NCBI RefSeq assembly: GCF_044324875.1 | Contig: NZ_CP172185.1 | DNA: 64,000 nt | Reading direction: 5' to 3' (one strand) | Origin: Escherichia coli | Lineage (GTDB): Bacteria > Pseudomonadota > Gammaproteobacteria > Enterobacterales > Enterobacteriaceae | In this document: positions 1,614-24,825 of the stretch, one piece after another | Layout of the letters: every line of letters begins with the position of its first letter | How positions within the stretch are numbered: position 1 is the first letter of the stretch | Position numbers and translations under genes: made by a program | Notes under the pieces: model-generated | The model's input: only the letters and a program-made list of their open reading frames with translations | What the model was told of the DNA's origin: nothing | Databases searched by the model: none

Positions 1614-1888
1614 AACGATGTTGCAACATTATTCAGCGTCATGGAAAAAAGGACTGACTGCACTCTGCTTACTGGCTGTTGCCGGGCTTAGCGGCTGCGA
1701 TCAAAAAGAGAATGCGGCGGCAAAAGTGGAATACGACGAACTTTCGAACAGCCAACCGCTGCGTGTCGATGCTAATAACCATACGGTAACCATGCTGGTG
1801 CAAATTAATGGTCGTTTCCTCACCGACGACACTCGTCACGGTATTGTGAACCGCCCCGGGTTTCCTGGAGAGTGTTTTATCTGTGAAC

Positions 1889-2779
1889 TCAGGCTGCCAG
1901 ATCATCGTTTCCGATGGAAGCATAATAAGCTTTTTCTGCTTCTGCCGGTGGGATATGGCCCAGCCTTTCCAGCAATCGTCGATTGTTATACCAGTCCACC
2001 CACGTGAGTGTGGCCAGCTCCACTTCTGTCCGGTTTTTCCAGCTCTTACGGTGTATTACCTCCGCTTTGTAAAGGCCATTGATGCTCTCCGCCATCGCGT
2101 TGTCATACGAGTCACCAGTACTTCCTGTTGATGCCAGTAATCCGGCTTCCTTAAGCCGCTGTGTGTAGGCCAGCGATACATACTGAGAACCTTTATCACT
2201 GTGATGGACTGTGCCGGACGGTCGACGGGCCCATAACGCCTGCTCCAGAGCATCCAGCACGAATGTCGTTTCCATAGACGATGAGACCCGCCACCCCACG
2301 ATGTATCCGGCAAACACATCAATGATGAACGCCACATAGACGACCCCCTGCCATGTGCTGACGTAAGTAAAATCAGCCACCCACAACTGGTCAGGACGTT
2401 CTGCCACAAACTGACGGTTTACGCGGTCGCCTGCGGCAACGGCTTTCCGGCTGACGGTAGTGCGGACCTTTTTACCCCGGAGAACACCGGCAAGTCCCAT
2501 AACCGCCATGAGGCGCGCCACTGTACATCTGGCTACCCTGATTCCTTCCCGTAACAACTGACGCCAGACTTTACGCACACCGTATACCTGATGATTCCCA
2601 TCGTATACGCGCAGTATCTCTTTCTTCAGCCAGTCATCGCGCTGCGCACGGGCACTGCGTTTATCCGGATGATGTCGCTGTTGCTGACAGTGGTAATACG
2701 TTGACGGGGCAATATGTAGTTCACTGCATACCGGTCCGACCCCGTACAGCTTACGCAGCTTATCCAGCAGTGGCATCAC
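1889..2779 (-). CDS. IS629 OrfB (DDE transposase catalytic subunit)
   Basis: 296 aa rve-domain ORF with IS3-family DDE motifs. Confidence 0.9.
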
Positions 2780-3102
2780 TTTTTCCAGAGGCGGTCGAAC
2801 TCCGCCTTCGCAAAATAAGCGGAAGCCTGGCGAAGGATATCGTTACTGCGGCGCAGTTCACGATTTTCACGTTCCAGCTCTTTCAGACGCTGACGTTCAG
2901 CGGTGGTGAGCCCGCCATCACCGCCTCCGGTATCCCGCTCATGCTGGCGTACCCAGACACGCAGAGTCTCCGGTGTACAGCCAATCTTTGGGGCAATGGA
3001 ACAAATTGCCGCCCACTGTGAGTCATATTCGCCCTGACTTTCCAGAACCATACGAATCGCCCTCTGACGGACTTCGGGGGAAAAACGAGTATTTTTAGTC
3101 AT
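2776..3102 (-). CDS. IS629 OrfA (HTH transposase subunit)
   Basis: 108 aa [19 protein letters not shown]...; overlaps OrfB as in IS3-family programmed -1 frameshift organisation. Confidence 0.9.
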
Positions 3103-3622
3103 TCTGTTTACCTCTTTCTCAGGGAGTTTAGTCTCCAGGATTCCCGGGGCGGTTCATTGTGTTTAAAGATGGCTCCAACGGACATAAATCGCTGTTTATG
3201 GGTTATGCGACCCCGAAAGCATTTTATGAAGCCCTGAAAGAGGCAGGTGGTACACCGGGCGAAAACATGACGATGGATAATAAAGAAACGACTCATGTCA
3301 CAGGCAGCAAACTGGATATTTCGGTCAACTGGCAAGGGGCGGCAAAAGCGTATTCCTTCGATGAAGTGATTGTTGACAGTAATGGCAAGAAACTGGACAT
3401 GCGCTTTGGCGGTAATTTAACGGCAGCAGAAGAGAAGAAAACGGGCTGCCTGGTGTGTCTGGATAGCTGCCCGGTCGGCATCGTCAGCAATGCAACATAC
3501 ACTTATGGTGCGGTTGAAAAACGAGGTGAAGTTAAATTCAAAGGCAATGCCTCGGTTCTCCCGGCGGATAACACGCTGGCAACGGTTACCTTTAAAATCA
3601 CCGAATAAAGCCAGGATAAAGA

Positions 3623-4330
3623 ATGATGAAGATGCAATCGAGAAAAATCTGGTACTACCGTATAACCCTCATCATCCTGTTGTTCGCTATGCTGCTGGCA
3701 TGGGCGCTGCTTCCCGGCGTCCATGAGTTTATTAATCGCAGCGTTGCGGCGTTTGCCGCCGTGGACCAACAGGGTATAGAACGCTTTATTCAGTCTTACG
3801 GCGCACTGGCGGCAGTTGTCTCGTTCTTGTTGATGATTTTGCAGGCCATTGCTGCACCGCTACCTGCGTTTCTGATCACCTTTGCAAATGCGTCGCTGTT
3901 TGGCGCGTTCTGGGGCGGCTTGCTGTCGTGGACCAGTTCGATGGCCGGCGCGGCGCTGTGCTTTTTTATCGCCAGAGTGATGGGCCGCGAAGTGGTGGAA
4001 AAGTTAACGGGTAAAACGGTACTCAATAGTATGGACGGCTTTTTTACCCGCTATGGTAAACACACCATTCTGGTATGCCGATTATTGCCTTTTGTGCCTT
4101 TTGATCCCGTAAGCTATGCTGCCGGTTTGACTTCAATACGTTTTCGCTCGTTTTTTATCGCCACCGGGCTTGGTCAGTTACCAGCGACTATTGTTTATTC
4201 CTGGGCGGGCAGCATGTTAACAGGCGGTACTTTCTGGTTTGTCACCGGACTGTTTATTCTGTTTGCCCTGACCGTGGTGATTTTTATGGCGAAGAAAATA
4301 TGGCTTGAGCGCCAGAAGAGGAATGCCTGA
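3623..4330 (+). CDS. ydjZ: TVP38/TMEM64-family inner membrane protein YdjZ
   Basis: 235 aa ORF; N-terminus MMKMQSRKIWYYRITL as recalled for YdjZ; synteny. Confidence 0.85.
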   Translation: MMKMQSRKIWYYRITLIILLFAMLLAWALLPGVHEFINRSVAAFAAVDQQGIERFIQSYGALAAVVSFLLMILQAIAAPLPAFLITFANASLFGAFWGGLLSWTSSMAGAALCFFIARVMGREVVEKLTGKTVLNSMDGFFTRYGKHTILVCRLLPFVPFDPVSYAAGLTSIRFRSFFIATGLGQLPATIVYSWAGSMLTGGTFWFVTGLFILFALTVVIFMAKKIWLERQKRNA

Positions 4331-4878
4331 TGGGTTTACCGCCGCTTAGCAAAATTCCTTTCATTTTACGTCCGCAGGCGTGGCTGCATCGTCGCCATTA
4401 CGGCGAGGTGCTAAGCCCGATTCGCTGGTGGGGGCGGATCCCGTTTATCTTTTATCTGGTGTCGATGTTTGTCGGCTGGCTGGAGCGCAAACGCTCACCG
4501 CTGGATCCAGTAGTGCGATCGCTTGTCAGCGCGCGCATTGCGCAAATGTGTCTGTGTGAGTTTTGCGTGGATATCACCAGTATGAAAGTCGCCGAGCGCA
4601 CTGGCAGCACCGATAAACTGCTGGCAGTGGCTGACTGGCGGCAAAGCCCGCTCTTTAGCGATGAAGAACGGCTGGCGCTGGAGTACGCCGAAGCCGCAAG
4701 CGTAACGCCGCCAACGGTCGATGATGCCCTGCGTACCCGACTGGCTGCGCATTTTGACGCCCAGGCGCTCACCGAACTGACGGCATTGATCGGACTGCAA
4801 AACCTGTCAGCCCGTTTTAATTCTGCCATGGACATTCCCGCTCAGGGGCTGTGCCGTATTCCTGAAAAACGTTCTTAA
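4330..4878 (+). CDS. ynjA: AhpD-like/carboxymuconolactone-decarboxylase-family protein YnjA
   Basis: 182 aa ORF, start overlaps ydjZ stop; synteny with K-12 gene order. Confidence 0.85.
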   Translation: MGLPPLSKIPFILRPQAWLHRRHYGEVLSPIRWWGRIPFIFYLVSMFVGWLERKRSPLDPVVRSLVSARIAQMCLCEFCVDITSMKVAERTGSTDKLLAVADWRQSPLFSDEERLALEYAEAASVTPPTVDDALRTRLAAHFDAQALTELTALIGLQNLSARFNSAMDIPAQGLCRIPEKRS

Positions 4879-5065
4879 GGAGGGTACTACCTTCACTTCT
4901 ACCTCTGCCTCCCAAACTCCGTAAAACTCATGCACAATCACCATATTACAGTCAACCCGAACATTATGAGCTCCACTGAATTCTACTGTTCACCCCCTAA
5001 ATCAAGCATAAAATGGGGGCATATTTGGGGGCCCATTGTGTTCAGTCAGTTTCAGGAGCCCCCAT

Positions 5066-6253
5066 ATGGCACTTACAGCCAGACAAGTCGAAACAGCCAA
5101 ACCTAAAGACAAAGATTATAAACTCTCTGATGAACGTGGTTTATATCTGCTGGTAAAAACCACGGGAGCACGCTACTGGCGCTTTAAGTACAGGATAGCA
5201 GGAAAGGAGAAAAAACTGTCCTTCGGTGTCTATCCTGACGTCTCCCTTGCAGAAGCCAGAACCAAACGCGACGATGCAAGGAAAATTATCTCCGAGGGCG
5301 GTGATCCCGGTGAAAAGAAACGAAGGGAAAAACTCTCACAGAAAATCTCTGTCACCAACACCTTCCATGCTCTCGCAATCGAATGGCATCATCATAAATC
5401 TTTATCATGGTCTGACAGTTACGCCAGAAGCGTACTGGAAGCTCTGGATAAAGACGTTTTCCCGTATCTGAGCAACCGGAGCGTTACTGATATCCTTCCA
5501 CTGGAAATGCTGGAAATACTACGTCGAATTGAAAAACGAGGCTCTCTGGAAAAACTACGCAAGGTCCGGCAATACTGCAATCAGATTTTCCGTTATGCCA
5601 TAGCCACAGGACGAGCCACTGTCAATCCAGCCTCAGAACTGAGCAGCACGCTGGCGGCACCAAAAACCGCACATTTTCCCCATCTGAGAGCGGATGAACT
5701 TCCTGTTTTTCTCCGGAAGCTCGCTGACTATCACGGCAGTCCTGTCACTCGTATGGCTACAAACCTGCTGATTCTGACCGGGCTCAGAACGATTGAATTG
5801 CGACTGGCCGAATGGTCAGAAATTGATTCTAGCAACGCACTCTGGCATATCCCTAGAGAGAGAATGAAAATGCGCCGGCCTCATATTGTTCCTCTGTCAC
5901 GCCAGGTCATTTCTGTTCTGCAGGAATTACATGGTTTTACCGGACAGTATCGCCTTATGCTACCCGGACGTTGCGATGTAAACAAACCTATGAGTGAAGG
6001 CTGCATCAATATGGTGCTCAAACGTATCGGTTACGATGGCAGGGCAACCGGTCATGGTTTTCGTCACACCATGAGTACCATTCTGCACGAACAGGGCTTT
6101 AATTCTGCCTGGATTGAAATGCAGTTAGCTCATGTGGATAAAAACTCCATCAGGGGTACCTATAATCATGCACATTATCTCGATGGTCGCCGTAAAATGA
6201 TGCAGTGGTACGCTGATTACATTGATTCTCTTATGGGAAAAACGCACAAATGA
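5066..6253 (+). CDS. Tyrosine recombinase, P4-type island integrase
   Basis: ORF 5036..6253; likely start MALTARQVETAKPKDKDYKL at 5066 with AGGAG 8 nt upstream; P4-integrase N-terminal signature and C-terminal catalytic region (HGFRHT...Y). Confidence 0.85.
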   Translation: MALTARQVETAKPKDKDYKLSDERGLYLLVKTTGARYWRFKYRIAGKEKKLSFGVYPDVSLAEARTKRDDARKIISEGGDPGEKKRREKLSQKISVTNTFHALAIEWHHHKSLSWSDSYARSVLEALDKDVFPYLSNRSVTDILPLEMLEILRRIEKRGSLEKLRKVRQYCNQIFRYAIATGRATVNPASELSSTLAAPKTAHFPHLRADELPVFLRKLADYHGSPVTRMATNLLILTGLRTIELRLAEWSEIDSSNALWHIPRERMKMRRPHIVPLSRQVISVLQELHGFTGQYRLMLPGRCDVNKPMSEGCINMVLKRIGYDGRATGHGFRHTMSTILHEQGFNSAWIEMQLAHVDKNSIRGTYNHAHYLDGRRKMMQWYADYIDSLMGKTHK

Positions 6254-6263
6254 AATAAACCAT

Positions 6264-6310
6264 CCCCCACCAACTGCAGCGGTTGGTGGGGGCTTAACTG
6301 TTATTTTTTG
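6264..6310 (+). terminator. Perfect 11-bp stem hairpin (CCCCCACCAAC-tgcagcg-GTTGGTGGGGG) followed by T-rich tract
   Basis: Seen directly, 10 nt after the integrase stop; could terminate either strand. Confidence 0.45.
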
Positions 6311-6639
6311 ATTTTTGCCTTCAGGCGTGTCCACAGGAAAATGCAAACTGCGGTATATACCCGTGTGATAAACAACAGTTTAAGGCTGAAATACTCTCCT
6401 GCCTCGCTGGCATTCGTTTCAAACATAGCGAAAAGAACACTCTGCGAGAACTCATGACTATAAATAAAATAATAACAGAGTGCTGTCAGTGACGTAGTCC
6501 AGAGAATAATACCGACAACCGCTGCAATAATTTTTATCCGTTCTGGAAAAAGAAACACGGGTATCCGCCACAGGGAGCTGAATAACAGTGAATCTCGTAT
6601 TCCATTTATTCCACCGTATCCGGTGCTGAAGATAATCAC
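6301..6639 (-). pseudogene. N-terminal ~110 aa fragment of an OpgE/EptA-like membrane phosphoethanolamine transferase
   Basis: ORF MIIFSTGY...FETNASEAGEYFSLKLLF...RLKAKIKK resembles the N-terminal TM region of sulfatase-family pEtN transferases; the catalytic domain is missing. Confidence 0.4.
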
Positions 6640-6803
6640 CTGCAGCAGGGTGGAAAAGATAAAGTATCGCCCCCGTGCGCTCCGGCTGAAAGCAGGTCTG
6701 CTGTTTCCGGCATTTAAATGTATTGACCATCTCCCGGTAAAATGTAATAAATCCCCCGTTACCGGAAAACCGATGAACAGAATTCGGACAGAAAATGAGT
6801 TCC

Positions 6804-7746
6804 TCAGTTACCTGTTGCGTTTCCCCCGGTCTGATGAGCCAGAGACACAATGGTCTGTACCGTTCTGTTGATATTAAACCGGTATTCGATATCTTCTCTG
6901 GCGCTGGCAACCATCATCCTGAAGCGTTCCGGGCGGGACAAAAAATCCCGAAGCGCACTGGTCCATGCAGTCATATCTCCCACAGGTAAAAGTGTTCCTG
7001 TCACATTTTTCTGAATGGCATCCGGGATCCCGCCAGTCTCACTGGCAATAACGGGAACACCGGAGGCTGACGCTTCAGCCAGGACCATGCCAAATGCCTC
7101 ATTTTTCAGAAGGCATGATAGCACACTGGCAACCCGGTATATCGGTAACGCCGGGAAAACAGCACCAGCCATGAAAACATCACCACTCATTCCCAGTGAT
7201 TCAATCTGCAGGCGAAGGCGTTCTTCGTATTCCTCACGACCAGCGCCCACCACGAGCCATCGAAATACTTTCCCTTCCATCTTCAGTTGGTGCAACACCC
7301 GGAGCATAAATTCATGCCCTTTCTCGGGACGCAACATACCCACCTGGACAATCAGCGGGATATTGCCCGCTGATTCTGTCCATCCCTGAATATGCGGAGG
7401 TAACTGTTGCCTGACTTCTCTGTGTAATACAGAAACGATGCCAGCATATCAGACGGCTCAGGCCTGCAATGTTACTGTCATGACCACTGTGGCAGATTAC
7501 CAGATCAGGTCTGAATTACCGGATTACCTGCCGCAGTCTGATGATGGAAGGAAGGTGAAGACTGTTCCTGAAAGGAATAAAAGTAACATCATGTCCGATT
7601 GTTCTGGCTTCATGAGCTATTTTACTTTTTTCCCTGCAGGCGAGTAAAACAGAATGCCCCTGTTTCTGGAGCGCTGTCATCTGTGCCAGAGCCTGTAACT
7701 CCTGGCCACCAATATCTGGTGAAGACTCAGTGAATAAAATCTTCAT
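6804..7746 (-). pseudogene. Family-1 (GT4-type) glycosyltransferase, frameshifted
   Basis: N-terminal ORF 7516..7746 and C-terminal ORF 6804..7343 (motif EAFGMVLAEASASGVPVIASETGGIPD) are in different frames with stops between them. Confidence 0.6.
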
Positions 7747-8401
7747 TATTAATTCTCTGGTAATCTTGGCCCCTTATGAAGAGCCAGTAATGAAGAGAAA
7801 AATGGCGTGATATAATAAAAAGGCACCGTTTCAGCCAACCGCAATATTCCCGTTCTTTTGTACTAATACGTCCTATAAGTAATGAACCTTTTACAGGGCA
7901 GTTCATTCTTCTTTCCGTTGTATATAAATAAGATAAACCAAGTTCTCTGGTGAGATTAATATAATCTCTGCTATAATATCCTGCAGGCCAGCATAGATGG
8001 GGACTACAGTATCCCAGTTTTTCCTTCAGACATTGTTTGCCTGTCATAATAGCTTCTTCCATGAGTCGGCACTGCTCAGTACGTGGTACAGACAGTCTGT
8101 CCCAGCGTTTATGTGAATGGGTATGTAAATGGAATTCAACAAGACCGGAATCACGCATTTCCCGGACTTCAGACCAGCGAAGCATCACTTCATCGGAACG
8201 GTTATCTGCAATCAACTGCTCACAGTCGCGATGCGAATATTCCCGTTTCTGTCTGTAACGCACCTTCCCGTCACCAATCAACCCTGTAATGAGAAAAATA
8301 TGCGTATGAAGATTGTATTCCTTCAGTACCGGCCATGCCCGGAACCAGTTATCAAGATATCCGTCATCGAATGTAATCATGAAGCTCTTTCTTGGAAGCA
8401 T
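7727..8401 (-). CDS. Polysaccharide deacetylase (NodB-homology domain)
   Basis: 224 aa ORF with the TFDDGY motif near the N-terminus; 3' end overlaps the glycosyltransferase start (operon-like). Confidence 0.6.
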   Translation of the reverse strand: MLPRKSFMITFDDGYLDNWFRAWPVLKEYNLHTHIFLITGLIGDGKVRYRQKREYSHRDCEQLIADNRSDEVMLRWSEVREMRDSGLVEFHLHTHSHKRWDRLSVPRTEQCRLMEEAIMTGKQCLKEKLGYCSPHLCWPAGYYSRDYINLTRELGLSYLYTTERRMNCPVKGSLLIGRISTKEREYCGWLKRCLFIISRHFSLHYWLFIRGQDYQRINNEDFIH

Positions 8402-10954: not shown

Positions 10955-11560
10955 TCAGGCAATACGCACGCTCTCAGGCATACCTACTTTCGTGATTTTA
11001 TTCAGCGCTAGCGCCATGACCATACCCTCTGCAACCTGACCATCGTAGTCACGCAGCGTCAGTGAACCTCCGAACAACTGTTTTACCCGGTACATCGCTG
11101 TTTCCGCTATCGAACGACGGTTATAATCTGTTGTCCATTTACACCGGGCATTACTTCCGGTCAGCCGCTGATTAGCCACTGCACGGTTACGGTCTTCGTA
11201 TTCACCGGGCTAGTAACCCGCACCTTTTCGGGAAGGGGTAAGCGCGCTGATTTTCTTACGCCTCAGTTCATCGTGACAGAGTCGGGGGTCGTAAGCCCCG
11301 TCTACCGCTGCAGCCATGATTTTTCTGTGAGTCTGTTGGAGAAGCCCCGGGAAGGCTTCTGAGTCCGTGACGTTGTTCAGCGACAGGTCTGCACAGACAA
11401 TTTCATGTGTGTTGCCATCAACAGACAGATGCGACGCCCCTCTTTGCCGTGCTTTTTGGCTTTCCTTTCGCCTTCCCCAAAGACTTTTAGCCCGTTGGAA
11501 TCAATCACGAGGTGTATGATTTCACCCCGGGTGGGGATTTATGTATAAGAAACAGCGTAT
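10955..11560 (-). pseudogene. DDE transposase remnant (IS5/IS4-like), several frameshifts and an in-frame TAG
   Basis: Frames read ...LHLAVDSNTHEIVCADLSLNN... and ...RDYDGQVAEGMVMALALNKITKVGMPESVRIA; GAGY*PGEY amber at about 11210. Confidence 0.45.
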
Positions 11561-11689
11561 TCGTGAGGGGTGAGCCATGAATAAAATCCCTTTTGAAGTA
11601 TTAATCCACTCTGAAAATGCATTAATCTGCGCAAAGGAAATGGACGCGTTATTAATTAAGTTAATTGATATTCCGGAAAGTGGCGATAA

Positions 11690-11989
11690 AACATATTCGA
11701 TGACGGACAGGCGACAATGTGGTTATCTGTGCTGGCGTTTGGCAGACAGGCCGAAGCACTGGCCAGACACCAGAAAGGCGAACTGGTAAGCGTGGCAGGT
11801 AACATGCAGGTCAGCCAGTGGACAGGGCAGAACGGGAAAACGCGGCAGGGACGGCAGGTTATCGCAGACAGCGTAATCAGTACTCAAACGGTGCGGCCAG
11901 GAGGAAGCAGACGCGAAACCACAGGTACACAGGGTAATCAGCCACCAACGGGAGGCGACGCCACTTACGGAGATGATATACCCTTATGA
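11690..11989 (+). pseudogene. Single-stranded DNA-binding protein, C-terminal fragment only
   Basis: ...MWLSVLAFGRQAEALARHQKGELVSVAGNMQVSQWTGQNGKTRQG...DDIPL parallels the SSB C-terminal half including the acidic DDIPF-like tail; no N-terminal OB-fold part. Confidence 0.5.
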
Positions 11990-12006
11990 ATTAAGCGGGG
12001 CGCAAC

Positions 12007-12327
12007 ATGAACAACAGCACACTGAAGAGCCGGACAATAAGCGACGCGACAGCGGAAGAACTCGAGAGCAGGGGACTGTGGCGACGTGCTGCCAGAAGGT
12101 GGCAGGATGTGATGATTACTCTTGAGAAAGACAGTCACAGACAGCTTGCAGTAATGAGAGCAAGGGAATGTATCAGGAAGGCAAAACGCCCGATACCTGA
12201 AAGCCGTATTGATATTCATACAGTCAGAAAGGCCGCAGACAGGACAATACAAAAAATGGGGCTACCGTCGCTTACTGATGAAATATGGCGCGATTACCCT
12301 GATAGCGTTAACGATGACGGTTATTAA
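12007..12327 (+). CDS. PerC-family transcriptional activator
   Basis: 106 aa; motif AEELESRGLWRRAARRWQDVM typical of PerC/Pch proteins; later KMGLP motif. Confidence 0.55.
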   Translation: MNNSTLKSRTISDATAEELESRGLWRRAARRWQDVMITLEKDSHRQLAVMRARECIRKAKRPIPESRIDIHTVRKAADRTIQKMGLPSLTDEIWRDYPDSVNDDGY

Positions 12328-12610
12328 CTGGCGGGGGAAACACGATACCAGCGGGCGTGACTCGGGAGAATATATACCGCTGGTGGAACATTACCAGCCC
12401 TGATGGCTGGTGGCGTGCGTTACGACCTGAAAGACCATCCATGCGGGAAGGTGACACAGGAGCACCTGGCGAACGCGGGGAAGCGACTGGATGAGATTAA
12501 GAAAAAACAGCAGGAGCGCAGAAAAAGTAACCGTCTCATTAAAACGTCTTTCGCCTCCCTTTCCTGTTTCCTATGCTAATGTCCATTTTCGCAGTAAAAG
12601 GACATTTACG

Positions 12611-12859
12611 ATGAATGCACGAAAGGCGGTACTGGCAGATAATCCGGAATTGATCCTGCGTTTGCTACAACTGAAATTTGACGAGACACTGTCGTACCCG
12701 CGCATTTCTGCACAGACCGGTGTCAGCAAAACCGCTATTTTTTCTCTGGTGAGGCGATTTCATCAGGTATTCACTGACGGGCATCTTTCTGGTGAATATT
12801 CCTGCGTGCAACTGACCGGGCTCTTTTCCCGGGGCGATAATATTCAGCCCCGACAGTGA
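12611..12859 (+). pseudogene. IS21-family IstA N-terminal HTH fragment
   Basis: MNARKAVLADNPELILRLLQLKFDETLSYPRISAQTGVSKTAIFSLVRRF resembles the N-terminus of the IstA at 16595..18130. Confidence 0.35.
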
Positions 12860-13090
12860 CTCAGCCTGTAAAAACAGAGAAAACCCGTCGGAACCGATTT
12901 TCACCAGAGTAAAAATGGAGACTTGTTCAGCAAACTCTTTTACCCGGAGCCTGTGTGGCCCAGATTGCACGAGAGTCTGGCATCAATGATAATGTTATTT
13001 TCAAATGGCTCAGACTCTGGCAAAACGAAGGGCGTGTTTCGCGGCGTCTTCCGGTAACAACCACTTCTGACGCAGGCGTTGAATTATTAC
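12860..13090 (+). pseudogene. Transposase HTH-subunit fragment (IS66/IS3-type)
   Basis: Frame reads ...FSPE*KWRLVQQTLLPGACVAQIARESGINDNVIFKWLR...; stop-interrupted. Confidence 0.3.
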
Positions 13091-13660
13091 CTATGGAGAT
13101 AACGCCGGATGAGCAGAAAGATCCGATGATTCCCCTACCGCCAGCTTTTCGCCTGCGCCGGTATACGTTTCTTTATCTTTGCCCTGCATCACCCACAGGC
13201 TGGCTCCGCCGATAATGGCGTTTTGTGGTGCATCTTTCGCGTCAGCGTCGTAAGGCATCATGCCTACGCCGTAGTTGAATTTGGCGTACTCGCGAATGTT
13301 GGCAAGAGAACCGGAAGAGGCGGTGGTCATCGCGCAATCACCTCTATAGAACTTCTCGGTGGATTCATCCTTACGCCCGACGTAGATGAAGTCGCCCTTC
13401 TTGTTCATCTCCTCGAGCATGACGATGTGTTTCACCTGCTCCGGCTTGTTGAACTCCAGCACCGCGTCCGTGGCGTCAAAACCGTTGTTTTTGCTGGCAA
13501 ACGGCAGACCGTTCCTGGCGCTAAAGTTTTCCAGTTGTATCCACCTCTTTGCCCATTTCCCCTTCCATAGAGTTCCAAAACGGAATGGTCGTCACTGCCT
13601 GTGCATTGCCCATTAACGCCAGTCCGAGCACCAGTGATGAAGCTGTATAATGTAACGGTT
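13091..13660 (-). pseudogene. ugpB: ugpB (sn-glycerol-3-phosphate ABC transporter binding protein) remnant with internal deletion and 3' truncation
   Basis: Signal peptide [30 protein letters not shown]... at the 5' end and ...[16 protein letters not shown]...[11 protein letters not shown]...[18 protein letters not shown] in ORF 13091..13462; about 160 codons missing between them; frames differ. Confidence 0.8.
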
Positions 13661-14419
13661 TCATCGTTTATCTCTCTTGCTTGTTGTACCTGATGTGCAA
13701 ATTCACTCGTTTTATGCTCGCGGGATTACATATCATGCCCGAATTGCAGAAAAATAACTTTTTATTACATGTGTAAGACAGTAAAACCTCAGAAAGATGA
13801 CAGTGTGGTGCCGGCGCGGGTGAGGAAAAATGGAAGATGGGGAATGTATAAGCGGGAAAATAGGAGGGCCTGTGGATTGTAGATAATGTGCTCATCGTTT
13901 TCATGCCGGATGAGACATAAACACTTTTATCTGAGCATTTCTATGTATTCGGACAGTTGTTCTTGGCATCCAATGGTGCAGGTTCTGTAGTGTGTGGTGG
14001 TAGCAATAGCCTCAGCTTCATTACAATATTTATTATCTCAAACATTCAAATGTCCTTGGCCCACTTTGATAGTCACTTTGTCGTGGTTATTATGTCTTTC
14101 CTTTTCCTAAAGCCCCATTATCTGTGCTGCAGCTTTCCCTCCATCAACGAACCAACAACCAGCAATGCCTGTCCCCCATAACAGCCCGGAAAATGGCACA
14201 TTCTCAGATGATTTATCCCGCGAGCTATCCCGCCTACAGCTAATCGACCTGTTTAATACATCTTGACAGTCTGCTGGCAAGGTTACCCTTCCCAATATTG
14301 TCCGTTTTTAACATATCTAATACGAGCCCCCATCAAATATGCTTCGTGTTCACTGTAAGTGACTAAAAGTGCTGTCTGCCCTGCCTCATGCAAAATATCA
14401 CGAACTTCACGGCTCAGTC

Positions 14420-14921
14420 CTACCCTTGTTTTTTATCCAAGCTGGAAAATGGTTCATCTAGCAACAGGATATCTGGATTTGGAACCAGTGACCTTGCAAG
14501 GGCAATACGTTGCTGCTGACCTCCTGAAAGTTCATGAGGATAGCTGTCTGAATAGTGGAATAAATCCACCATTTTCAACAGTTCTGTAACTCTGGTTCGC
14601 TGTACATCTCTCGGCAGTCTTCTCAGACCAAAGCCACGTTTTGTGAAACTGTAAGGTGGGGAAAGAGCGCATATTCCTGAAAGACTATACCGACATGACA
14701 TTTCTCCGGCGGAAAATGCATATCTGCGCTGGCCACACAATGCTGTGATACAAAAATTTCCCCTTGTTCAGGCGCTCAAAACCAGCTACAGCACGTAGTA
14801 CTGTTGTTTTTCCACAACCTGATGTACCAAGCAGACATGCCAGTTCACCTTTACAGACTGACATACCCCCCGCCCCGCAATACAGGATATGGGCTATTGG
14901 GATAAACAACATGGACATCAT
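14420..14921 (-). pseudogene. ABC transporter ATP-binding protein, frameshifted and truncated
   Basis: Walker A GTSGCGKTTVL in ORF 14685..14921; signature [13 protein letters not shown] and Walker B LLLDEP in ORF 14420..14740; different frames. Confidence 0.6.
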
Positions 14922-14951
14922 TAATACATAAAGCTGTTTCTTCAGACATAA

Positions 14952-15552
14952 TCAATCCTCTGATTTCAGTCTTTCAGCTGGAACAAACAAAATAACCGGA
15001 AATGTCCCTGCAAGAACAATCATTAAAGCAGAGATGGCCCCTTCTTCAAAAGTTCCACGGGCTGCTTCAGCATAAAGAAGTGTTACTGGCAGTTCTTTCA
15101 TCGCATCAGTGAAAACCAGCAGGGCACTGCTCACCAGAGCAACACAGGAAAGTGAACCCGAACAAAAGTTCCTGTACCATTTTCTCCCAGCAGACGTGAG
15201 GCTTGTTCCAGTGACGCTGGTATACGTCCCAGCCGGACATCAAGTGCGCCGATGGCTATTGCCTGAAATCGCATCGTACAGCAAATCACCAACAGGACAC
15301 CGACAGACATTAAAGGTAACCCCCTGTAATCCAGTAGTTCCGCCAGCCAGCGGTCATTTAGGGAGTCAGAAAACCAATCGCCAGAATCGTGCCCGGAAAG
15401 GCATAACCCAGCGACGCCCCTCTCATCACACCGCGCCTGAACAGTGGCATAGCGTTGAGGAATTCCGGGCATTCCAGACTACGAGCAGACTGACAAAAAT
15501 TACGACAAAGCGTTGAAGGAAGCCAGCGCGCGGACTGACAGGACTTTACCAT
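14952..15552 (-). pseudogene. ABC transporter permease remnant
   Basis: Hydrophobic ORFs 15358..15552, 15131..15472 and 14952..15134 in three frames, upstream of the ATPase remnant. Confidence 0.45.
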
Positions 15553-15822
15553 AAAAACACAGGCTAACCGCGCCTGCGTTTTTAATGACGGATGAAACAG
15601 AATCAGGTGCCGATTATGCCGCCGTCGGCTTTTACGATAACGACAGTTGAGGAGCGCGGACGACCAGCCTTATCGCCGTCAGGCCAGCTTGATACTGCCG
15701 TCGGATGCTGCGGATCGCTAAGCTGCGTATTCCGCTCTATTCGATCACGGATTGGCATCGAAGTCCGATCAGCGATTCGCATCCATTCGATCAACCGGGA
15801 ACTTAACTTTTTCTACCGCTTT

Positions 15823-16578
15823 TTAACGCGTTTTTTCGCTGCTTTCCACTACCGGGGGATTTTTCCTCAGTGACTCTCCCTGAAGGACCACTCGGTGTGA
15901 GTTATGTACCAGTCTGTCCAGGATGGCATCTGCTGTTGTTGGGTTCTCCATCAGACCATGCCATTTATCTACCGGGAACTGGCTTACCACTATCGTGCTG
16001 CTTTGTCCGTAACGATCCTCTATGAGCTCCAGAAGGTCATTACACTGGGCGTTACTTAACTGTTCCAGCCCCAGATCGTCCAGGATTAGAACCTGTATTT
16101 TTTGCAACTGTTTCAGATATTTCAGCCAGCTGCCATCAACACGTCCCTGAGCCAGTTGTTCCAGTAATCGCCCGGTTCTACAGTACCGGACGCTGTGTTT
16201 CTGTCGACATGCCTGTTCGCCCAGCGCATTGGCTATCCAGCTCTTGCCACATCCTGTCGGACCGGTTATCAGCAGGTTTTTCCTGTGGGTTATGTAGTGG
16301 CCGTTCAGCAGTTCTCTCATCTGTTCAGCCCGCAGACCTCTTGAGGCCGGATAGCGCAGCCCTTCCGGTGTTGCCTGGTATTTCAGGCCGGCATTTTTTC
16401 TCAACCGTGCCACACGGCTGTTTTCCCTGCTCAGAAGCTCGTCATCAACCAGCAGCGTCAGCCTTTCCTCGAACGACAGTTCGTCGTAGGTCTGAGGCGT
16501 TTCCCGCTGCCGTATCAGGCTCCCGGCCATCGCCGGGAGTTTCAGTTGGGTCAGTTTGTTTAACAGGTTATCACTCAT
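15823..16578 (-). CDS. IstB-like ATPase of the IS21-family element
   Basis: Walker A GPTGCGKS; likely start MSDNLLNKL at 16578 with AAGGAA RBS. Confidence 0.8.
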   Translation of the reverse strand: MSDNLLNKLTQLKLPAMAGSLIRQRETPQTYDELSFEERLTLLVDDELLSRENSRVARLRKNAGLKYQATPEGLRYPASRGLRAEQMRELLNGHYITHRKNLLITGPTGCGKSWIANALGEQACRQKHSVRYCRTGRLLEQLAQGRVDGSWLKYLKQLQKIQVLILDDLGLEQLSNAQCNDLLELIEDRYGQSSTIVVSQFPVDKWHGLMENPTTADAILDRLVHNSHRVVLQGESLRKNPPVVESSEKTR

Positions 16579-16594
16579 ACTGTTGTTCCTTCTG

Positions 16595-18130
16595 TCAGTG
16601 GTAGTAGCCCGGACCACGCAGGTTTTCATGCTCTGAAGCATATGCCGGATGTTGTTCGCCCTGGCGGGATAATGGAAGCTCCAGGTTCTCCCGATGGTGA
16701 CGCAGCAGATTGTCGATAAAGCGTCTGTCAGGGGCGTTATAGTGCAGGGCAACGTAACAGGCCTTTTCCAGCCGTTCCGGGCCGTATTTTTTCTGAAGTG
16801 CCAGCAGCCCCAGAACTGCACGATAAGCCAGTTCCGGATGGGGTTTTGCCTTCAGCATGGATTCAACCACCCGGCCTGTGGACGGGCCCGTACGTTTTCC
16901 CTGCTCGATCAGGCGTTCCGGTGTCCATGTCCCGTGCTGCCGGTGGCGCTCTGGCATGTGAAGCGGATTGGTTGTGTGTTTATATTCATGTGTGCTGCGC
17001 GGATGTTGCGCCACACACTGCCCCTTGTGCCAGAGCTGTACCACCGACTGCCCCGCCTTCAGTGACAGACGCTGACCGACCAGTTCGTGTGGAACGGAGT
17101 ACCAGTGACGGGCATATTCAACGTGGTAGTCAGGGCCAACCTTCACAGCTTTGTATTCCGTGTATTCATAAGGTGCCAGAGGCAGCGGAGAGAGTGCTGG
17201 CGCATCCAGTATGCGGAAGCGTTCTGCACGGGTTTGATTGCCGTACCCCTTCATTGGCCGGTTATTCATGTCTGTCAGTAACTCCCTAAGGCGCGCATTC
17301 AGCGCCCTGAGCGTGTGGAAGGTTTCATTACGGATGCGGGCAAGAAGCCATCGTTCAACGATGAGGACGCCGTTTTCTGCTTTTGGTTTATCTTTAGGTT
17401 TGCGTGGTCGGGCCGGGATGATAACCGTGCCATAGTGCTCAGCCAGTGCCTGATAACTGTCGTTGATGACAGGCTCATATCGATCGGCCTTTTTCACTGC
17501 GCTTCTGAGGTTATCGGGGATGAGCAGCTTCGGTACGCCGCCCAGGAAGGTCAGGCAACGGCTGTGGGCATTTAACCATGACATCATGTCCTGACCTTCG
17601 CACGCTTCAACGTAGGTATAGTTGGACGCCCCCATTACGGCCACGAAGATTGCCACGCGGCGTATCTCACCGGTGTCCGGATTAATAACAGGAACCGTAG
17701 GACCACAGAAGTCGATAAAAAGCTTTTCGCCGGCACGATGCTCCTGGCGCATGGAGAGACGTCGCGTTTTTTTCCACTCCCGGTAGCAACGGCAGAAGTG
17801 CGAGTATCCCATCGCTTTGTTACCCGCCTGTGCCTTGTATTCCATCCACAACAGTTGCCGCGTCACACCTGGTTTTCTCATTTCCGTATCGAAGTACAAC
17901 ATGTCAGGCATTACAAGCTCTGATGCAAAGGTGTCTTTGGGCGGAAAAATGAGTTTCTCCAGCGTGTCATGGGATATATCAGCAGGTAATGGCCATGACA
18001 GAGAAGAGGCTTTGAAGCGGGCAAGAACCTCAAAAACGGTTGAGGCGCTGATGTGTAACGTCAGTCCGATACAACGGTTAGTCAGCTTCTTGTCGAACTT
18101 GAGCTGAAGGATCTTAAAACAGGTTTCCAT
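16595..18130 (-). CDS. IstA-like DDE transposase of the IS21-family element
   Basis: 548 aa ORF; likely start METCFKILQ at 18130 with AGGAG RBS; N-terminal HTH and rve core. Confidence 0.8.
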   Translation of the reverse strand: METCFKILQLKFDKKLTNRCIGLTLHISASTVFEVLARFKASSLSWPLPADISHDTLEKLIFPPKDTFASELVMPDMLYFDTEMRKPGVTRQLLWMEYKAQAGNKAMGYSHFCRCYREWKKTRRLSMRQEHRAGEKLFIDFCGPTVPVINPDTGEIRRVAIFVAVMGASNYTYVEACEGQDMMSWLNAHSRCLTFLGGVPKLLIPDNLRSAVKKADRYEPVINDSYQALAEHYGTVIIPARPRKPKDKPKAENGVLIVERWLLARIRNETFHTLRALNARLRELLTDMNNRPMKGYGNQTRAERFRILDAPALSPLPLAPYEYTEYKAVKVGPDYHVEYARHWYSVPHELVGQRLSLKAGQSVVQLWHKGQCVAQHPRSTHEYKHTTNPLHMPERHRQHGTWTPERLIEQGKRTGPSTGRVVESMLKAKPHPELAYRAVLGLLALQKKYGPERLEKACYVALHYNAPDRRFIDNLLRHHRENLELPLSRQGEQHPAYASEHENLRGPGYYH

Positions 18131-18241
18131 AGTGCTCCTGGATTTTCTCTTTCTGGACATTGACGTCTCCACTGGTTTAAACACGGCAATGGAGACTGTG
18201 GTGAAAAGAGTTAATTCCCGGAGTGACTGGCAGGATGCCAA

Positions 18242-18365
18242 TCAATGATCGGAAGCATGCCAAATCGTGATCGATTGTGATGCCAAACTGTGATCGGAGA
18301 TGGATGCCAAATCATGATCGATTCGAATGCCAAACTGCGATCGATTCAGATGCCATTTTGCACTA
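18242..18365. repeat. Five tandem ~23-bp direct repeats (ATGCCAAAYYRTGATCGRWKNNN), terminal repeats of the IS21-family element
   Basis: Seen directly; inverted versions lie at the other IS end. Confidence 0.6.
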
Positions 18366-20227
18366 AGCCCTTCGCTTGGCTCGCCAGGGTGCTGGATGTT
18401 AATAAACAGCGTCCGGTTATCCGGAGTGAACGCGATGCCGGTGATTTCGCAGCCGCGCGGGCCGGTCAGGAAGCGGCGGAACTCATTGGTACCGGGAATC
18501 GTCGCCACCATCTGGTTGTTGCCCATGCCTTTGTAATCTTTAATATTTATGGTTGATGACGACACGTCGGTCTGGATCCATAGCACGCCGCGGTGATCGA
18601 AGCTCAGGCCATCGGCGCTGCCGAATTCCGCACCCTTCATGCTGCCTTTGGTTTCCGGTTTGTCTGTATCGGTGCGACCGCCCATCACAAGAATATCCCA
18701 GGCAAACTGCAGCGCGGTCGGGTCACCGTTATGCTCCAGCCAGTGAATGATGTGGCCGTAAACGTTTTTGGCGCGCGGGTTGGCCGCATCCACTGGCGCT
18801 TTTCCTTCCTTACCGCGATCGCTGTTGTTGGTGAGCGTGCAGTAAACGCTGCCGGCGTGATATGGATCGACCGCAATCCACTCCGGGCGGTCCATTTTAG
18901 TGGCCCCCACGGCGTCTGCCGCCAGACGGGTTTTAATCAACAGGTCGCCCTGGTTTTCAAACCCTTTACTGGCGTCGAGCCCATTTTGTCCGAACACCAG
19001 CGGTAGCCACTCGCCTTTGCCGTCGTCGTTAAATTTCGCCACGTACAGAGTGCCTTTTTCCAGCAGGTGCATGTTGGCTTTGCGATCCTGCGGGTTGAAT
19101 TTTCCTTCCGAGACAAATTTATATATGTATTCGAATTTCTGGTCATCGCCCATATAGACCACAACGCGGTTATCCGGGGCAATTGTCACCGCTGCGCCTT
19201 CGTGTTTGATGCGACCAAGCGCGGTGTGCTTGCGCGGCACTGAATGCGGATCGTATGGATCGATTTCCACCACCCAGCCGAAGCGGTTCGGCTCGTTCGG
19301 CGTGGCGTCGACGCTGAACCTTTTATCCACTTCGTTCCAGCGGTAAGAGTCGTCGCTCCCGCTGATACCGTAACGTTTTTCCAGCGGGTTCATCTCTGCT
19401 TTTTTTACGAAAATATCGGACCAGTTCTCTTCACACGTCAGATAGGTGCCCCACGGCGTAAATCCGTTGGCACAGTTCTGCATGGTGCCGAGAATGATTT
19501 CGCCTTTCGGATCGTCAACTGTTTGCATCAGTGGGTTATGCAGCGCCGGACCGGTGATTTTCATCGGCGTGTTAACGGTGATGCGGCGTGCGAACGATGA
19601 CGGGCGCACCACTTCCCAGCCCAGGGGCACTTTTTTTACTTCAATGACCGACACGCCCATCGCGTTCTGGCCTTTAAGAGCTTTATCGGCGCTCCAGTTG
19701 GCATCGCCATCTTTAAACAGTAGACCGTTATCGATGTATTCATGGTTTATGGCAAGCAGGCCGTGATCGGAGCTGTTCCCGCCCTGCGGCAGGCTAAACC
19801 ACGCCATGCCGTCGTGGTGCATCCCGGCCTGCGCCGCCTGTTCTTCCGTGGTGTTGCTACCGTCGGTTTTAAAAACCGGCAGATTTCCGGCAATCCCGGT
19901 GGCGTCGCCCCATTTGTAGAAGGGCTTCGCGATGTATCCTTCCGGCACGATAACGGTATCTTCCGTGGAAACCGGCAGGCTGGTGAAACCGAGCGTCGTC
20001 GCTTTGCCGAGGTTACCGCTTGCTTTGGAGACCACTTTCGCCAGCGCGTTTTCCTGTTTCAGCAGAAATGGGAACGCTGCCGCGGCACCGGCGACCGTGC
20101 CTGCCTGTAACAGACGGCGGCGTGACAAATAGACTTCCGCCACCTGCGAAAACGCGCGGTTATCGCTCGGGTTACTGATTTCTTCACTATGCTCACGTTT
20201 GAATAAAGTTTTTAACGGTCTGCCCAT
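18242..20227 (-). pseudogene. PhoX-type (DUF839) Tat-signal phosphatase, C-terminus replaced by the IS21-family end
   Basis: Twin-arginine motif LSRRRLLQAG; beta-propeller phosphatase-like body; the last ~40 codons of the ORF are encoded by the IS terminal repeats. Confidence 0.55.
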
Positions 20228-20649
20228 TGCGGTTTCCTTTCAAAAAATCGATTTCAAGGGGAATCATTTTTATGCACGTGAGTCTACGGAAAGATTGTTA
20301 CGGAAATATAACAATTGTCATAAAAAACCGGCGATAAAATCATCTATGGTCGGGACGCGGTTTCAGGTATGATGTGAGGCTAGAATTCTGAACGCTCTCT
20401 TTTGTTGAGCATATATGGACGTCCCAGATGAGGCAAGTACTGGTTCGATGCGGTTTGCGACCATATATCCGGCGTCGTTAGTAGGTTCAATGACCTGCGC
20501 CATGATGTTATCCGGGCCCTGTTTCCTAATCACTACACCGGTATTTGATTACCCAGGTCAACTTCAGACTGTTACAGGGGCGGTAGCCGTTATCTCATCA
20601 GTGAATGTAAACTCAGTTAAAAATATTTTCTATAACTTACTGTTTTTCT

Positions 20650-20859
20650 TTAATTCATCACAACGGCCTTCTGCATATTAAAATCAATACTATCGCTCAA
20701 AACACGCCAGATGATTCTTGTCAGCTTATTCGCCAGCGCACCAGTGGTTTTCAGGAACCCTCGACGGGCTTCCATCCTTTGCAGACAAATACTCAGACTG
20801 TCAGTGAGCTTTTTCACACAGCGCATTACAGACTGAAATGGCACACTGAATTTGGTCAC
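20650..20859 (-). pseudogene. IS110-family transposase C-terminal fragment
   Basis: ...TGALANKLTRIIWRVL motif. Confidence 0.4.
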
Positions 20860-20869
20860 CTGAACAGAG

Positions 20870-21606
<737 letters not shown>

Positions 21607-21612
21607 CTAGCT

Positions 21613-21649
<37 letters not shown>

Positions 21650-21988
21650 TAATTACACTGTGGGTTGACGCCGGAAGAATCAGAGAACAGATACCGTTCT
21701 TACTGTAAAACGTGGCTAATATTAATTGAGCACTGCAGTGTTCAGAGCACAAAGAAGAAAAAAGATGTGTGCGAATGCCTGTAATGTGTTAAAAGAATGT
21801 TCCGCGTTTCCGGTACGCTTTTCGTAACTAACAATGCAGGGTGACGTAACGCTGGTTGTGCCGGAAACGCGTCCCTCCCCCTATCTTTCCTGTTTGGATT
21901 TGCCCCTATATTTCTGGATTATCCGACAAAACCGGCGTGAAGTATTACTCTCGTCGCCCAGCACCATAAGGATAACGCCCATAAAATC

Positions 21989-22354
21989 ATGAAACTTTTC
22001 TTCCAGATTGGATACAATCAGGCCGTATCCCGTATTACAGGCTTATCACGTGTGACAGTCAGTCTCTGGGTGTGTTCAGGAACATTCCCTGAAATGTCAA
22101 CCCGGCCTCCAGAGCGAGGACTTCTGGCCCCATGGAGGGAGTGGTTAAAAGAGCAACGAGAAAGTGGTAACTTCGGCGCGTGGCTGCAAGGATGGCAGCT
22201 GATGCTGCGGCTATATGTGAGGCAATCAGCAGTCGCTGGAATAATGGGGGTTGTCGAAAGTCATGTAAATCGACTAAAAATGCTGAAAGGCCAGATGTAT
22301 GGTCGAGCCGGATTTGAACTACTCAGGCAGAGGGTCATGAGTCCACTGGCATGA
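21989..22354 (+). CDS. Hypothetical protein with possible HTH (AlpA/Cro-like) N-terminus
   Basis: 121 aa ORF; weak resemblance only. Confidence 0.25.
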   Translation: MKLFFQIGYNQAVSRITGLSRVTVSLWVCSGTFPEMSTRPPERGLLAPWREWLKEQRESGNFGAWLQGWQLMLRLYVRQSAVAGIMGVVESHVNRLKMLKGQMYGRAGFELLRQRVMSPLA

Positions 22355-22562
22355 AAATCTCCATCCAGGTTGCGTAAGAGCCACTTTTCATCCGTCGTCG
22401 ATATCTGGGATAGCCATAGTGAAATAAAAAGCTGTCTGAATTAAATTATTTTGCACATATATTTTAATCCTGCACTGAATTAAGAATGGGTAATCAGTGA
22501 CCGCTTGGACGGTCACTTTTAAGAGAAGGCATTAACAGAGAATGGTAAACAGGCTCAATATA

Positions 22563-23014
22563 TTATGTTGTTGGCACTACAGATGAATGATGGGATGATA
22601 TTTTCCAATCCTTTCCATCCCACTCATAAGCGAAACTATAGCGTGCTGAAACTTGTTTTTTATCTTCAAAAGTAAACGTGTAATTCCCTGTATCAAGAGC
22701 CATATTGCATCCAATGCGAATAGTTCTGAAGTTTATTTCTCCAACAGGTTTTTTTTTCAAAAAATGCTCAAAATAGTCAACTCTTTCTGCATCTGTAATC
22801 CTAATTTTTTTTGATACTGTGGGCAGTAAGATCGCATCACTTAAATAGTTATCAGCAACCTTCTTGGCATCACCTGTTTTTAATGATTCATTCCAGCGAT
22901 CGAATAACCTTTCAATGTCTTTACTATCTACCCGAATACACTTAACATTATCTACGTCACTTGCCCACGACGCTCCAGAAAACAGACACAGAATTAAAAT
23001 ATTTATTTTTTCAT
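22563..23014 (-). pseudogene. NTF2-like (DUF4440/SnoaL-like) secreted protein, frame broken in an A6 tract directly after the ATG
   Basis: AGGAGG-4nt-ATG at 23014; ATG AAA AAA TAA as written; one extra A gives MKKINILILCLFSGASWA signal peptide plus a ~130 aa NTF2-like domain ending ...WKISSHHSS. Confidence 0.5.
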
Positions 23015-23245
23015 AACTCCTCCTGATCAGCCTGAAACTTTTTTAAAGTTTAATCATATTAATACAGTGCAACTATTTGATAGTAAAAACGATGTTCTCT
23101 ATTTTGTTAATAGATACTTCCTATTGTGTATATATTATGAGATTATTAAGAATAATACTCTCTGGGTCGTAGAGACAGGGTATAAGTCACAGGCTGGTGT
23201 GGTTCGGATGTTCTTGCCCCCTCAATATCAGACTGCTATTGTATC

Positions 23246-23611
23246 TTAAGTTAACGTTATCCGCTGACGTCGATATTCCCGTGGTGAGAGATAACCTAAC
23301 GCACTATGCGGATGGTTTTCATTGTAATGCTCGAACGCCTCTGCAAGGTTATGCAATGCCGTTATTACATTCGGTTTCGGTATGAACGCAATGTAGTCTT
23401 CCTTCATCGTTTTCACTAACCTTTCTGCCATTCTATTGCTCTGAGGGCTACTGACTGCCGTCGTGCAGGGCTCCAGATTCAACTCTCTGGCGAATTGCCG
23501 TGTTTCATGAGCCGTATAAGCCGAACCGTTATCCGTCCGCCACTGGATTGCTCGTTCCGGTCCTTTATCGCCAAAGCGTTTTTCTATCGCTCCTAACATC
23601 ACATCCTGCAC
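23246..23611 (-). pseudogene. IS3-family (IS2-like) OrfB C-terminal fragment
   Basis: ...[18 protein letters not shown]...[14 protein letters not shown] motif. Confidence 0.55.
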
Positions 23612-24375: not shown

Positions 24376-24381
24376 GGTTCC

Positions 24382-24780: not shown

Positions 24781-24825
24781 GGGAACCTGTGCCTCTGGAT
24801 ACAGGGATTCAGGTAATCCCGTTCG

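Follow-up and report, generated by a model that had tools for sequence, protein, structure and literature searches.

The chromosomal attachment site (attB) of P4-type integrases usually lies in the 3' end of a tRNA or transfer-messenger RNA (tmRNA) gene. In the 64-kb stretch of Escherichia coli DNA considered here (the window, to which all positions refer), a P4-family integrase gene is found directly after the protein-coding gene ynjA, and the question arises what kind of site, if any, was used by the integrase at this locus. An initial annotation, made from the sequence alone, had stated that no tRNA or tmRNA attachment site is recognisable beside the integrase, and had left two alternatives, namely a non-tRNA attachment locus or a junction created by later rearrangement. 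The gap between ynjA and the integrase gene (4879–5065) is exactly 187 bp, as had been stated, and neither ARAGORN (no call in the 64-kb window) nor Rfam cmscan (no hit in 4600–5400 at E ≤ 10) detects a tRNA or tmRNA. The region 4300–6400 is 100% identical to the chromosome of strain NRZ14408.

Positions 4872–5065 are, with a probability of roughly 0.8, the left attachment junction (attL) of an island of 72–99 kb (size range from the match coordinates in 29 complete genomes) that used its own P4-family integrase to enter an attB outside any tRNA gene, namely the ynjA-ynjB spacer.

The empty site and the two junctions

In K-12, whose ynjA-ynjB interval the initial annotation had proposed for comparison, the site is unoccupied and the stop codon of ynjA is separated from the start codon of ynjB by 9 bp. 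When this empty site is aligned with attL and with the right junction (attR), it is seen that no chromosomal base was lost at the insertion, and that nothing was duplicated except TTC[T/C]TAAGGAG, an imperfect direct repeat of 11 bp with one mismatch, of which 7 bp are exact (Table 1). Such an insertion without loss, bounded by a direct repeat, supports the first of the two alternatives, the non-tRNA locus. As for a direct repeat further to the right, for which a search had been suggested, there is none inside the window, where the core occurs once (4872–4884); the second copy is found in related complete genomes, where it marks the distal end of the island. The att pair so defined is canonical in form, with a core and P4-type arm repeats, but its location is not a tRNA gene.

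The genome search covered 5426 complete E. coli genomes, a set to which the window's own genome does not belong and in which the window was covered to 84–89% at best. Both junctions are present in the same 29 of these genomes, all of which match both halves, and the att sequences are identical in the five complete genomes that were fetched (and, for attL, in the window as well). In the island-free genomes inspected, K-12 and VCSW5, the empty attB is intact.

The position of the crossover may be narrowed further. TAAGGAG is preceded by T in attL and by C in attR, and is followed by G in attL and by A in attR. Since attL and attR thus carry opposite parental flanks around TAAGGAG, the crossover is confined to these 7 bp. 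Tyrosine recombinases exchange strands across an overlap of 6–8 bp, which is necessarily identical in both partners. Because of this requirement, TAAGGAG is presumed to be the overlap region, and strand exchange would have taken place within the 7 bp common to attB and the attachment site of the element (attP).

The gene ynjA is the final chromosomal gene ahead of the island, and its TAA stop codon (4876–4878) lies inside the recombination core. Because the 7 bp hold this stop codon together with the Shine-Dalgarno sequence of ynjB, both open reading frames (ORFs) survive integration; the insertion splits the putative operon and leaves ynjA and ynjB both intact. A natural variant of attB is seen in SCU-115, the attR of which has TAAGGAGAGAAGATG in place of TAAGGAGAGATGATG on the host side, three bases past the core. 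This variant also removes the first of two ATGs preceding ynjB.

The second alternative, later rearrangement, would require that the island was first located at a tRNA-Phe gene (pheU or pheV) and was afterwards moved beside ynjA by inversion, by transposition of an insertion sequence (IS), or by some other rearrangement. The island is rich in IS elements and pseudogenes, and its integrase family is otherwise always at tRNA-Phe, both of which would suit such a history. However, both ends of the island meet the same 7 bp of the 9-bp spacer, with a direct repeat and with no base lost or gained; neither junction has an IS; no tRNA-Phe sequence was brought along according to ARAGORN and Rfam; and the junctions are identical in differing chromosomal backgrounds. 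Rearrangement is therefore highly improbable as the origin of precise junctions that recur in several unrelated chromosomal backgrounds, and it is rejected.

The integrase, its relatives and the two attPs

The integrase matches the Pfam domains Arm-DNA-bind_3 (PF13356, 6.6e-28), Phage_int_M (PF22022, 1.3e-28) and Phage_integrase (PF00589, 3.5e-22), all above the curated cut-offs, and by BLASTP is 40% identical to P4 Int (E 7e-102, aligned residues 1–387). R241, K268, H330, R333, H356 and Y366 occupy invariant columns in the integrase protein alignment and align with P4 Int; we take these residues to be the candidate catalytic set R-K-H-x-x-R-H-Y of tyrosine recombinases. Nothing was returned by a PDB search except N-terminal and central domains of CP4-like integrases on their own and a weak match to lambda Int.

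The integrase forms a separate cluster at 90% identity, of which the listed named members are all from E. coli. Its nearest relative, the P0121 type (397 amino acids, 94% amino-acid identity), is found at pheU and at pheV. Seven of the ten listed places of the P0121 type are at a full tRNA-Phe gene, and the remaining three are behind an SPI-7-type integrative and conjugative element (ICE) at a tRNA-Phe fragment. The P0002 type (89%) is located at pheU in strain 2452 and at pheV in NCTC86, and a relative in Lelliottia (80%) and one in Providencia (76%) likewise adjoin tRNA-Phe. In all four relatives the integrase gene is found 176–177 bp downstream of tRNA-Phe. Among the contigs examined, the 395-residue variants of the ynjA type adjoin ynjA, and the 397-residue variants adjoin tRNA-Phe.

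In terms of synonymous divergence (dS), the P0121 type is the sister (0.27) and the 2452 type the outgroup (0.54–0.56), with an omega of about 0.10 throughout. The integrase has evolved under purifying selection. Since the ynjA type is nested in a tRNA-Phe-specific clade, the ancestral target would be tRNA-Phe, and the direction of the switch would be from tRNA-Phe to ynjA-ynjB.

Two further observations concern these relatives. In several genomes the SPI-7-type ICE (ParA, DnaB-PI, ParB) stands directly ahead of the P0121-type module, and at the junction of the two, about 180 bp upstream of int, there is a tRNA-Phe 3' fragment without an ARAGORN call, which suggests that two elements accreted in tandem at a single tRNA-Phe site. 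When the integrase gene was used as the query, 173 plasmid matches were obtained in total; among the matches listed, four plasmids (102–137 kb) have a partial integrase homologue (nt 426–1167, 84% identity).

The arms of attP are likewise shared with the tRNA-Phe islands. The left arm aligns without insertions or deletions with the sequence following tRNA-Phe in the relatives, and the right arm aligns in the same manner, up to the core, with the right ends of the Nissle pheV and GF153 islands. The first bases of the island, GGTACTA (4883–4889), are the counterpart of the tRNA-Phe 3' end GGCACCA, which they match at 5 of 7 positions; the two differences are C-to-T changes in what was copied from the acceptor end and CCA tail of the tRNA. 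The same 13 bp (CCTTCACTTCTAC) then follow in the sister type. As judged from this alignment, GGTACTA is a decayed homologue of the tRNA-Phe 3' end of the sister islands. Its decay would be explained because the copy no longer has to rebuild a tRNA. The absence of a tRNA fragment from the interval thus holds for the detection tools, whereas the vestige GGTACTA is recognised by homology alone.

The G5 and C5 runs reported for the interval are present, as TGGGGGC at 5014 and 5026 and in inverted form at 5058; three of the window's 12 copies of this heptamer fall within 51 bp (about 5e-4 by a rough chance estimate). They are not a degenerate tRNA, however, but arm-type integrase sites. In phage P4 (NC_001609), 12-bp features of the type TTGGGGGCAT are annotated as 'attP arm sequence repeat', the core being flanked by a tandem pair on either side, with a further, inverted copy across the start of int. 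The repeats at 5012–5035 have the same motif, tandem order and distance from the core as in P4, and the repeat at 5057–5068 has the geometry of the P4 repeat 3915–3926, in that the C-run ends 3 nt before the start (MKLN in P4). The repeat blocks are kept in all tRNA-Phe-type relatives aligned, the inverted repeat being invariant, and the right arm carries AAGGGGCCTTATTGGTGGCCCC. We infer that Int binds these arm repeats. A GGGGCC...GGCCCC arrangement in the right arm was at one point considered as a terminator hairpin and was dropped, the comparison with P4 showing two tandem arm-type repeats instead.

When the attPs of the tRNA-Phe type and the ynjA type are compared (Table 1), 5 of the 7 central bases differ, as against 4 of the 33 flanking bases (Fisher p = 0.003). 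The integrase and attP would derive from the module of the tRNA-Phe (pheU/pheV) islands, with the arms, the GGGGGC repeats and the core-flanking bases retained, while the central 7 bp would have changed from GAGTCCG to TAAGGAG and the protein would have gained about 23 substitutions. The switch may plausibly have begun with a rare integration into a secondary site, followed by an excision that copied the new overlap into attP. In the saf mutants of lambda, the overlap of attP was changed by passage through a secondary site.

Of the approximately 23 amino-acid differences from the P0121 type, 10 lie within residues 256–313, around the K268 hairpin (p = 6e-4), which is not proof of retargeting, because this is also the most variable stretch between two tRNA-Phe-specific clades. 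Six derived residues, S256, R264, L298, G312, C313 and K377, are found at otherwise invariant columns and are candidates for altered specificity. That the element encodes a recently active, naturally retargeted tRNA-Phe integrase, the target of which was moved by a swap of the 7-bp overlap alone and by no more than some 23 amino-acid changes, is proposed tentatively, with somewhat less than an even chance of being correct.

The derived residues may also be read as a sign of loss. If the integrase were an inactive relic, the changes E264R, F298L, A312G, S313C and E377K would reflect decay rather than a new specificity, and it would not be surprising that they stand at columns invariant in all tRNA-Phe-type relatives aligned, or that the adjoining cargo is heavily pseudogenised. 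Such a relic, however, is hardly to be reconciled with an ORF that is intact and a protein that is identical in every complete genome inspected, nor with the conservation of the candidate active-site residues and an omega of 0.10. Moreover, the presence of near-identical islands in divergent backgrounds requires a recently working integrase. We therefore regard decay as distinctly unlikely.

Integration in different chromosomal backgrounds

For the base-by-base comparison, the window was taken together with NRZ14408, strain 135, SCU-115, B771 and 24A16CRGN010, and attR was taken from the five complete genomes. Divergence among these six genomes is at most 0.16% over the first 5.6 kb of the island, as against 0.6–6% over the last 3.5 kb of the chromosome. 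On the left, host-specific single-nucleotide polymorphisms (SNPs) extend to position -80 relative to the first base of the core, and on the right they extend to +25 or +10 (B771, SCU-115, 24A16CRGN010). In SCU-115 a chromosomal variant stands at about the tenth base from the start of the core, and B771 has the K-12 haplotype on both sides. One Int protein (WP_001218736.1) is found in every complete genome inspected, beside four YnjA protein alleles. VCSW5, in which the island is absent and attB is intact, has a left flank 99.9% identical to that of the window. The simplest reading of these alignments is repeated site-specific integration into one core in at least four backgrounds, because homologous recombination of the flanks cannot leave so little donor DNA.

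It may be supposed, on the other hand, that a single accidental integration into a secondary site, by an integrase specific for tRNA-Phe, took place, after which the element was immobile and was spread vertically or by homologous recombination of its flanks. Several results would agree with this: the island is found in only 29 of the 5426 genomes, always at one site; its attP form was not found in the complete genomes or in the metagenome scan; attB and attP have minimal similarity outside the core; and a recombination patch may be discerned beside the island between the window and NRZ14408. However, with recipient SNPs at -80 and at +25 or +10 bp, too little donor flank is left for RecA-mediated transfer. 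A dS of 0.27 to the nearest tRNA-Phe relative, accumulated under purifying selection, is also an ill fit with a recent accident, and the attP-derived bases flanking the core likewise differ from the tRNA-Phe type. The single accident is thus considered unlikely.

The chromosome to the left of the island shows some features of its own. The window and NRZ14408 differ at 23 SNPs, 19 of which cluster in ydjY-ynjA (1764–4653), adjoining the island; no difference is found in positions 1–1763, and only 4 SNPs in the island's first 6 kb. From its distribution, the cluster looks like a small recombination patch. In ydjY lies a 1307-bp IS3-family element (1849–3155) with ends TGAACCGCCCCGGG..., which matches the annotated IS1203 family and is not at this position in NRZ14408 or in any of the best-matching complete genomes listed. 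The left flank of the window is 99.9% identical to those of the island-free XJ6.1 and JNEC-KY178, as it is to that of VCSW5.

Several points weigh against the reading favoured here, that is, site-specific insertion by the island's own, retargeted integrase. The likeness between attB and attP is limited to TTC.TAAGGAG.G, so that the recognition of attB by Int is unexplained. The ynjA-type attP is a reconstruction from attL and attR, not an observed form: the attP junction, circular or tandem, was not found, a 93-mer searched against the 5426 E. coli genomes giving separate halves only, and the metagenome scan with a 24-mer (the right half of attL/attP) likewise giving none. The 24-mer is absent from 100,044 species-representative genomes, and the element is found in E. 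coli only. With respect to movement between cells, the island is large (72–99 kb) and its ICE genes are decayed. The base-by-base comparison covered 6 of roughly 30 island-bearing genomes. Finally, the clustering of substitutions in residues 256–313 does not by itself indicate retargeting. One metagenome contig was matched by the 24-mer, and here the match is again at ynjA.

The island module, its cargo and known systems

The features of the locus are collected in Table 1.

Table 1. Positions and sequences of the predicted attachment sites, the integrase module and the adjoining genes (slashes set off the central 7 bp)
Feature	Position in window	Strand	Sequence or description
ynjA	4330–4878	+	ORF; Pfam CMD (carboxymuconolactone-decarboxylase family); RefSeq annotation of identical DNA
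attL	4870–4891		CGTTCT/TAAGGAG/GGTACTACC
Direct repeat, attL copy	4872–4882		TTCTTAAGGAG; from alignment of attL and attR with the K-12 empty site
Central 7 bp	4876–4882		TAAGGAG; confines the crossover; ynjA stop TAA and ynjB Shine-Dalgarno AAGGAG
Left arm (attP-derived)	4883–5065	+	homologous to the arm after tRNA-Phe in pheU/pheV islands
Island body	4883–64000 and beyond the window end		97.8 kb in NRZ14408, ending at attR before ynjB
Tandem 12-bp arm-type repeats	5012–5035	+	AATGGGGGCATA, TTTGGGGGCCCA; the G5 runs
Inverted arm-type repeat	5057–5068	-	GAGCCCCCATAT on + strand; overlaps the ribosome-binding site and ATG of the integrase gene; the C5 run
Integrase gene	5066–6253	+	395 aa, WP_001218736.1; P4-family tyrosine recombinase; intact ORF
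GC-rich hairpin	6264–6292		terminator-like; T-rich tracts follow on both strands; closes the integrase module
Phosphoethanolamine-transferase (EptA/CptA-like) pseudogene	6319–6723	-	RefSeq annotation of identical DNA
attR	outside window, directly ahead of ynjB		TTTTATTCC/TAAGGAG/AGATGATG
Direct repeat, attR copy	outside window, before ynjB		TTCCTAAGGAG
Empty site, K-12			CGTTCT/TAAGGAG/AGATGATG
attP, tRNA-Phe type			...AGTTTCATTCC/GAGTCCG/GGCACCACCTTCACTTCTAC
attP, ynjA type			...AGTTTTATTCC/TAAGGAG/GGTACTACCTTCACTTCTAC

The initial annotation had the integrase gene end at a strong hairpin abutting a truncated gene on the opposite strand, and both are confirmed. The hairpin has a stem of 11–13 bp, a folding energy of -26 kcal/mol and a z-score of -3.75, and the homology with the tRNA-Phe-type module of strain CM2 stops shortly after it, at about 6299. 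The truncated gene lies 27 bp further on and is described by RefSeq, in identical DNA, as a pseudogene 'missing C-terminus'; Pfam EptA_B_N matches the ORF 6301–6639. It is the first cargo remnant, and its lost C-terminal end points toward the hairpin. The 3' half of the hairpin holds a further TGGGGGC (6287–6293, within GTTGGTGGGGGCTT), which resembles the arm-type repeat and TTGGTGGCC of the right arm, and which may be due to chance or may be an additional Int site.

The island is a mosaic, carrying iha, sit and aerobactin genes together with many IS elements and pseudogenes. In 6301–8401 the cargo is decayed, and is annotated in related genomes as a truncated phosphoethanolamine transferase, a frameshifted family-4 glycosyltransferase and a frameshifted polysaccharide deacetylase. 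The block 11011–25000 contains a PhoX phosphatase, remnants of an ABC transporter and pseudogenes of the TIGR03756/03757 ICE proteins. This block is present at 99.8% identity in genomes without the ynjA insertion, for example 702/18, PKF4 and PK8275. Islands at other loci therefore have modules in common with this one.

At the far end of the island is a 'yee' module (YeeU/CbtA, DUF957, DUF4942), and the annotation of the NRZ14408 island includes, beyond the window, a gene of the AlpA family. In strain 135 there are 55 SNPs relative to NRZ14408 at approximately 400–1000 bp before attR, around DUF957/DUF4942, while the last 400 bp are identical, which suggests recombination with another CP4-like island. 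With regard to an outward promoter, no sigma-70 consensus was found in the last 650 bp of the island. The island occurs in E. coli from poultry and from humans.

An integration site at ynjA/ynjB is not described in the literature searched, including PMC11537424, a review of E. coli islands and the TIGER supplements. In the intP4 module of GI-pheV and GI-pheU, the direct repeats are the 19- or 23-bp 3' end of the tRNA (PMC11537424). The ynjA element is similar to this module in that the integrases are 89–94% identical, the arms are homologous with the same arm-type repeats, int starts 176–183 bp from the core, the 'yee' module is at the far end, and the cargo is mosaic and IS-rich. In contrast, the ynjA element has its attB in a spacer, an 11-bp repeat with one mismatch, TAAGGAG in place of GAGTCCG, and a decayed copy of the tRNA 3' end (GGTACTA versus GGCACCA). 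On the evidence of its sequence, the ynjA integrase is a member of the tRNA-Phe island clade, while by location it is outside the group with tRNA-Phe sites. Phage P4, which has its attB in the tRNA-Leu gene leuX, is similar to the ynjA element in the full-length Int (40% identity), in the three-domain architecture and in the layout of the arm repeats. It differs in having as its core a 20-bp tRNA 3' end, as compared with 7 bp between protein-coding genes, and in being an 11.6-kb satellite phage, as compared with an island of 72–99 kb.

Other systems offer parallels in the change of target and in its preservation. Lambda and HK022 have closely related integrases with different core specificity, and identity in the 7-bp overlap governs their choice of site. 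These, like the saf mutants, are lambdoid or laboratory cases, whereas the case at ynjA is natural, belongs to the P4 family, and leads from a tRNA gene to a spacer within an operon. Phage 21 and e14 at icd, and SGI1 at trmE, preserve their protein-coding targets and duplicate tens of bp of the 3' end of the gene. The ynjA element likewise restores its target, the stop codon staying with ynjA and the Shine-Dalgarno sequence with ynjB. In contrast to those elements, it shares with its target only a 7-bp intergenic core, and its integrase comes from a clade with otherwise strict specificity for tRNA-Phe.

For E. coli, the insertion splits the putative ydjX-ynjD operon, and the expression of the YnjBCD ABC transporter could change as a consequence. 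Island finders centred on tRNA genes would miss this virulence-gene island of 72–99 kb (iha, sit, aerobactin). Its entry into four or more distinct chromosomal backgrounds appears likely.

Non-tRNA sites are common among integrases. A traceable, apparently recent and active switch within a strictly tRNA-specific clade is unusual and lends itself to experiment. To our knowledge, the acquisition of new targets by tyrosine integrases is mostly known from laboratory mutants and from the lambda/HK022 pair. The ynjA type and the P0121 type would constitute a natural pair, in which enzymes 94% identical use entirely different sites. The main difference between their homologous attPs is in the central 7 bp, so that swaps of the overlap and of the candidate residues would test the switch directly. 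If the proposed switch is true, the pair locates strand exchange for the whole intP4 family, and would provide a minimal natural system for dissecting, and perhaps reprogramming, the site specificity of P4-family integrases.

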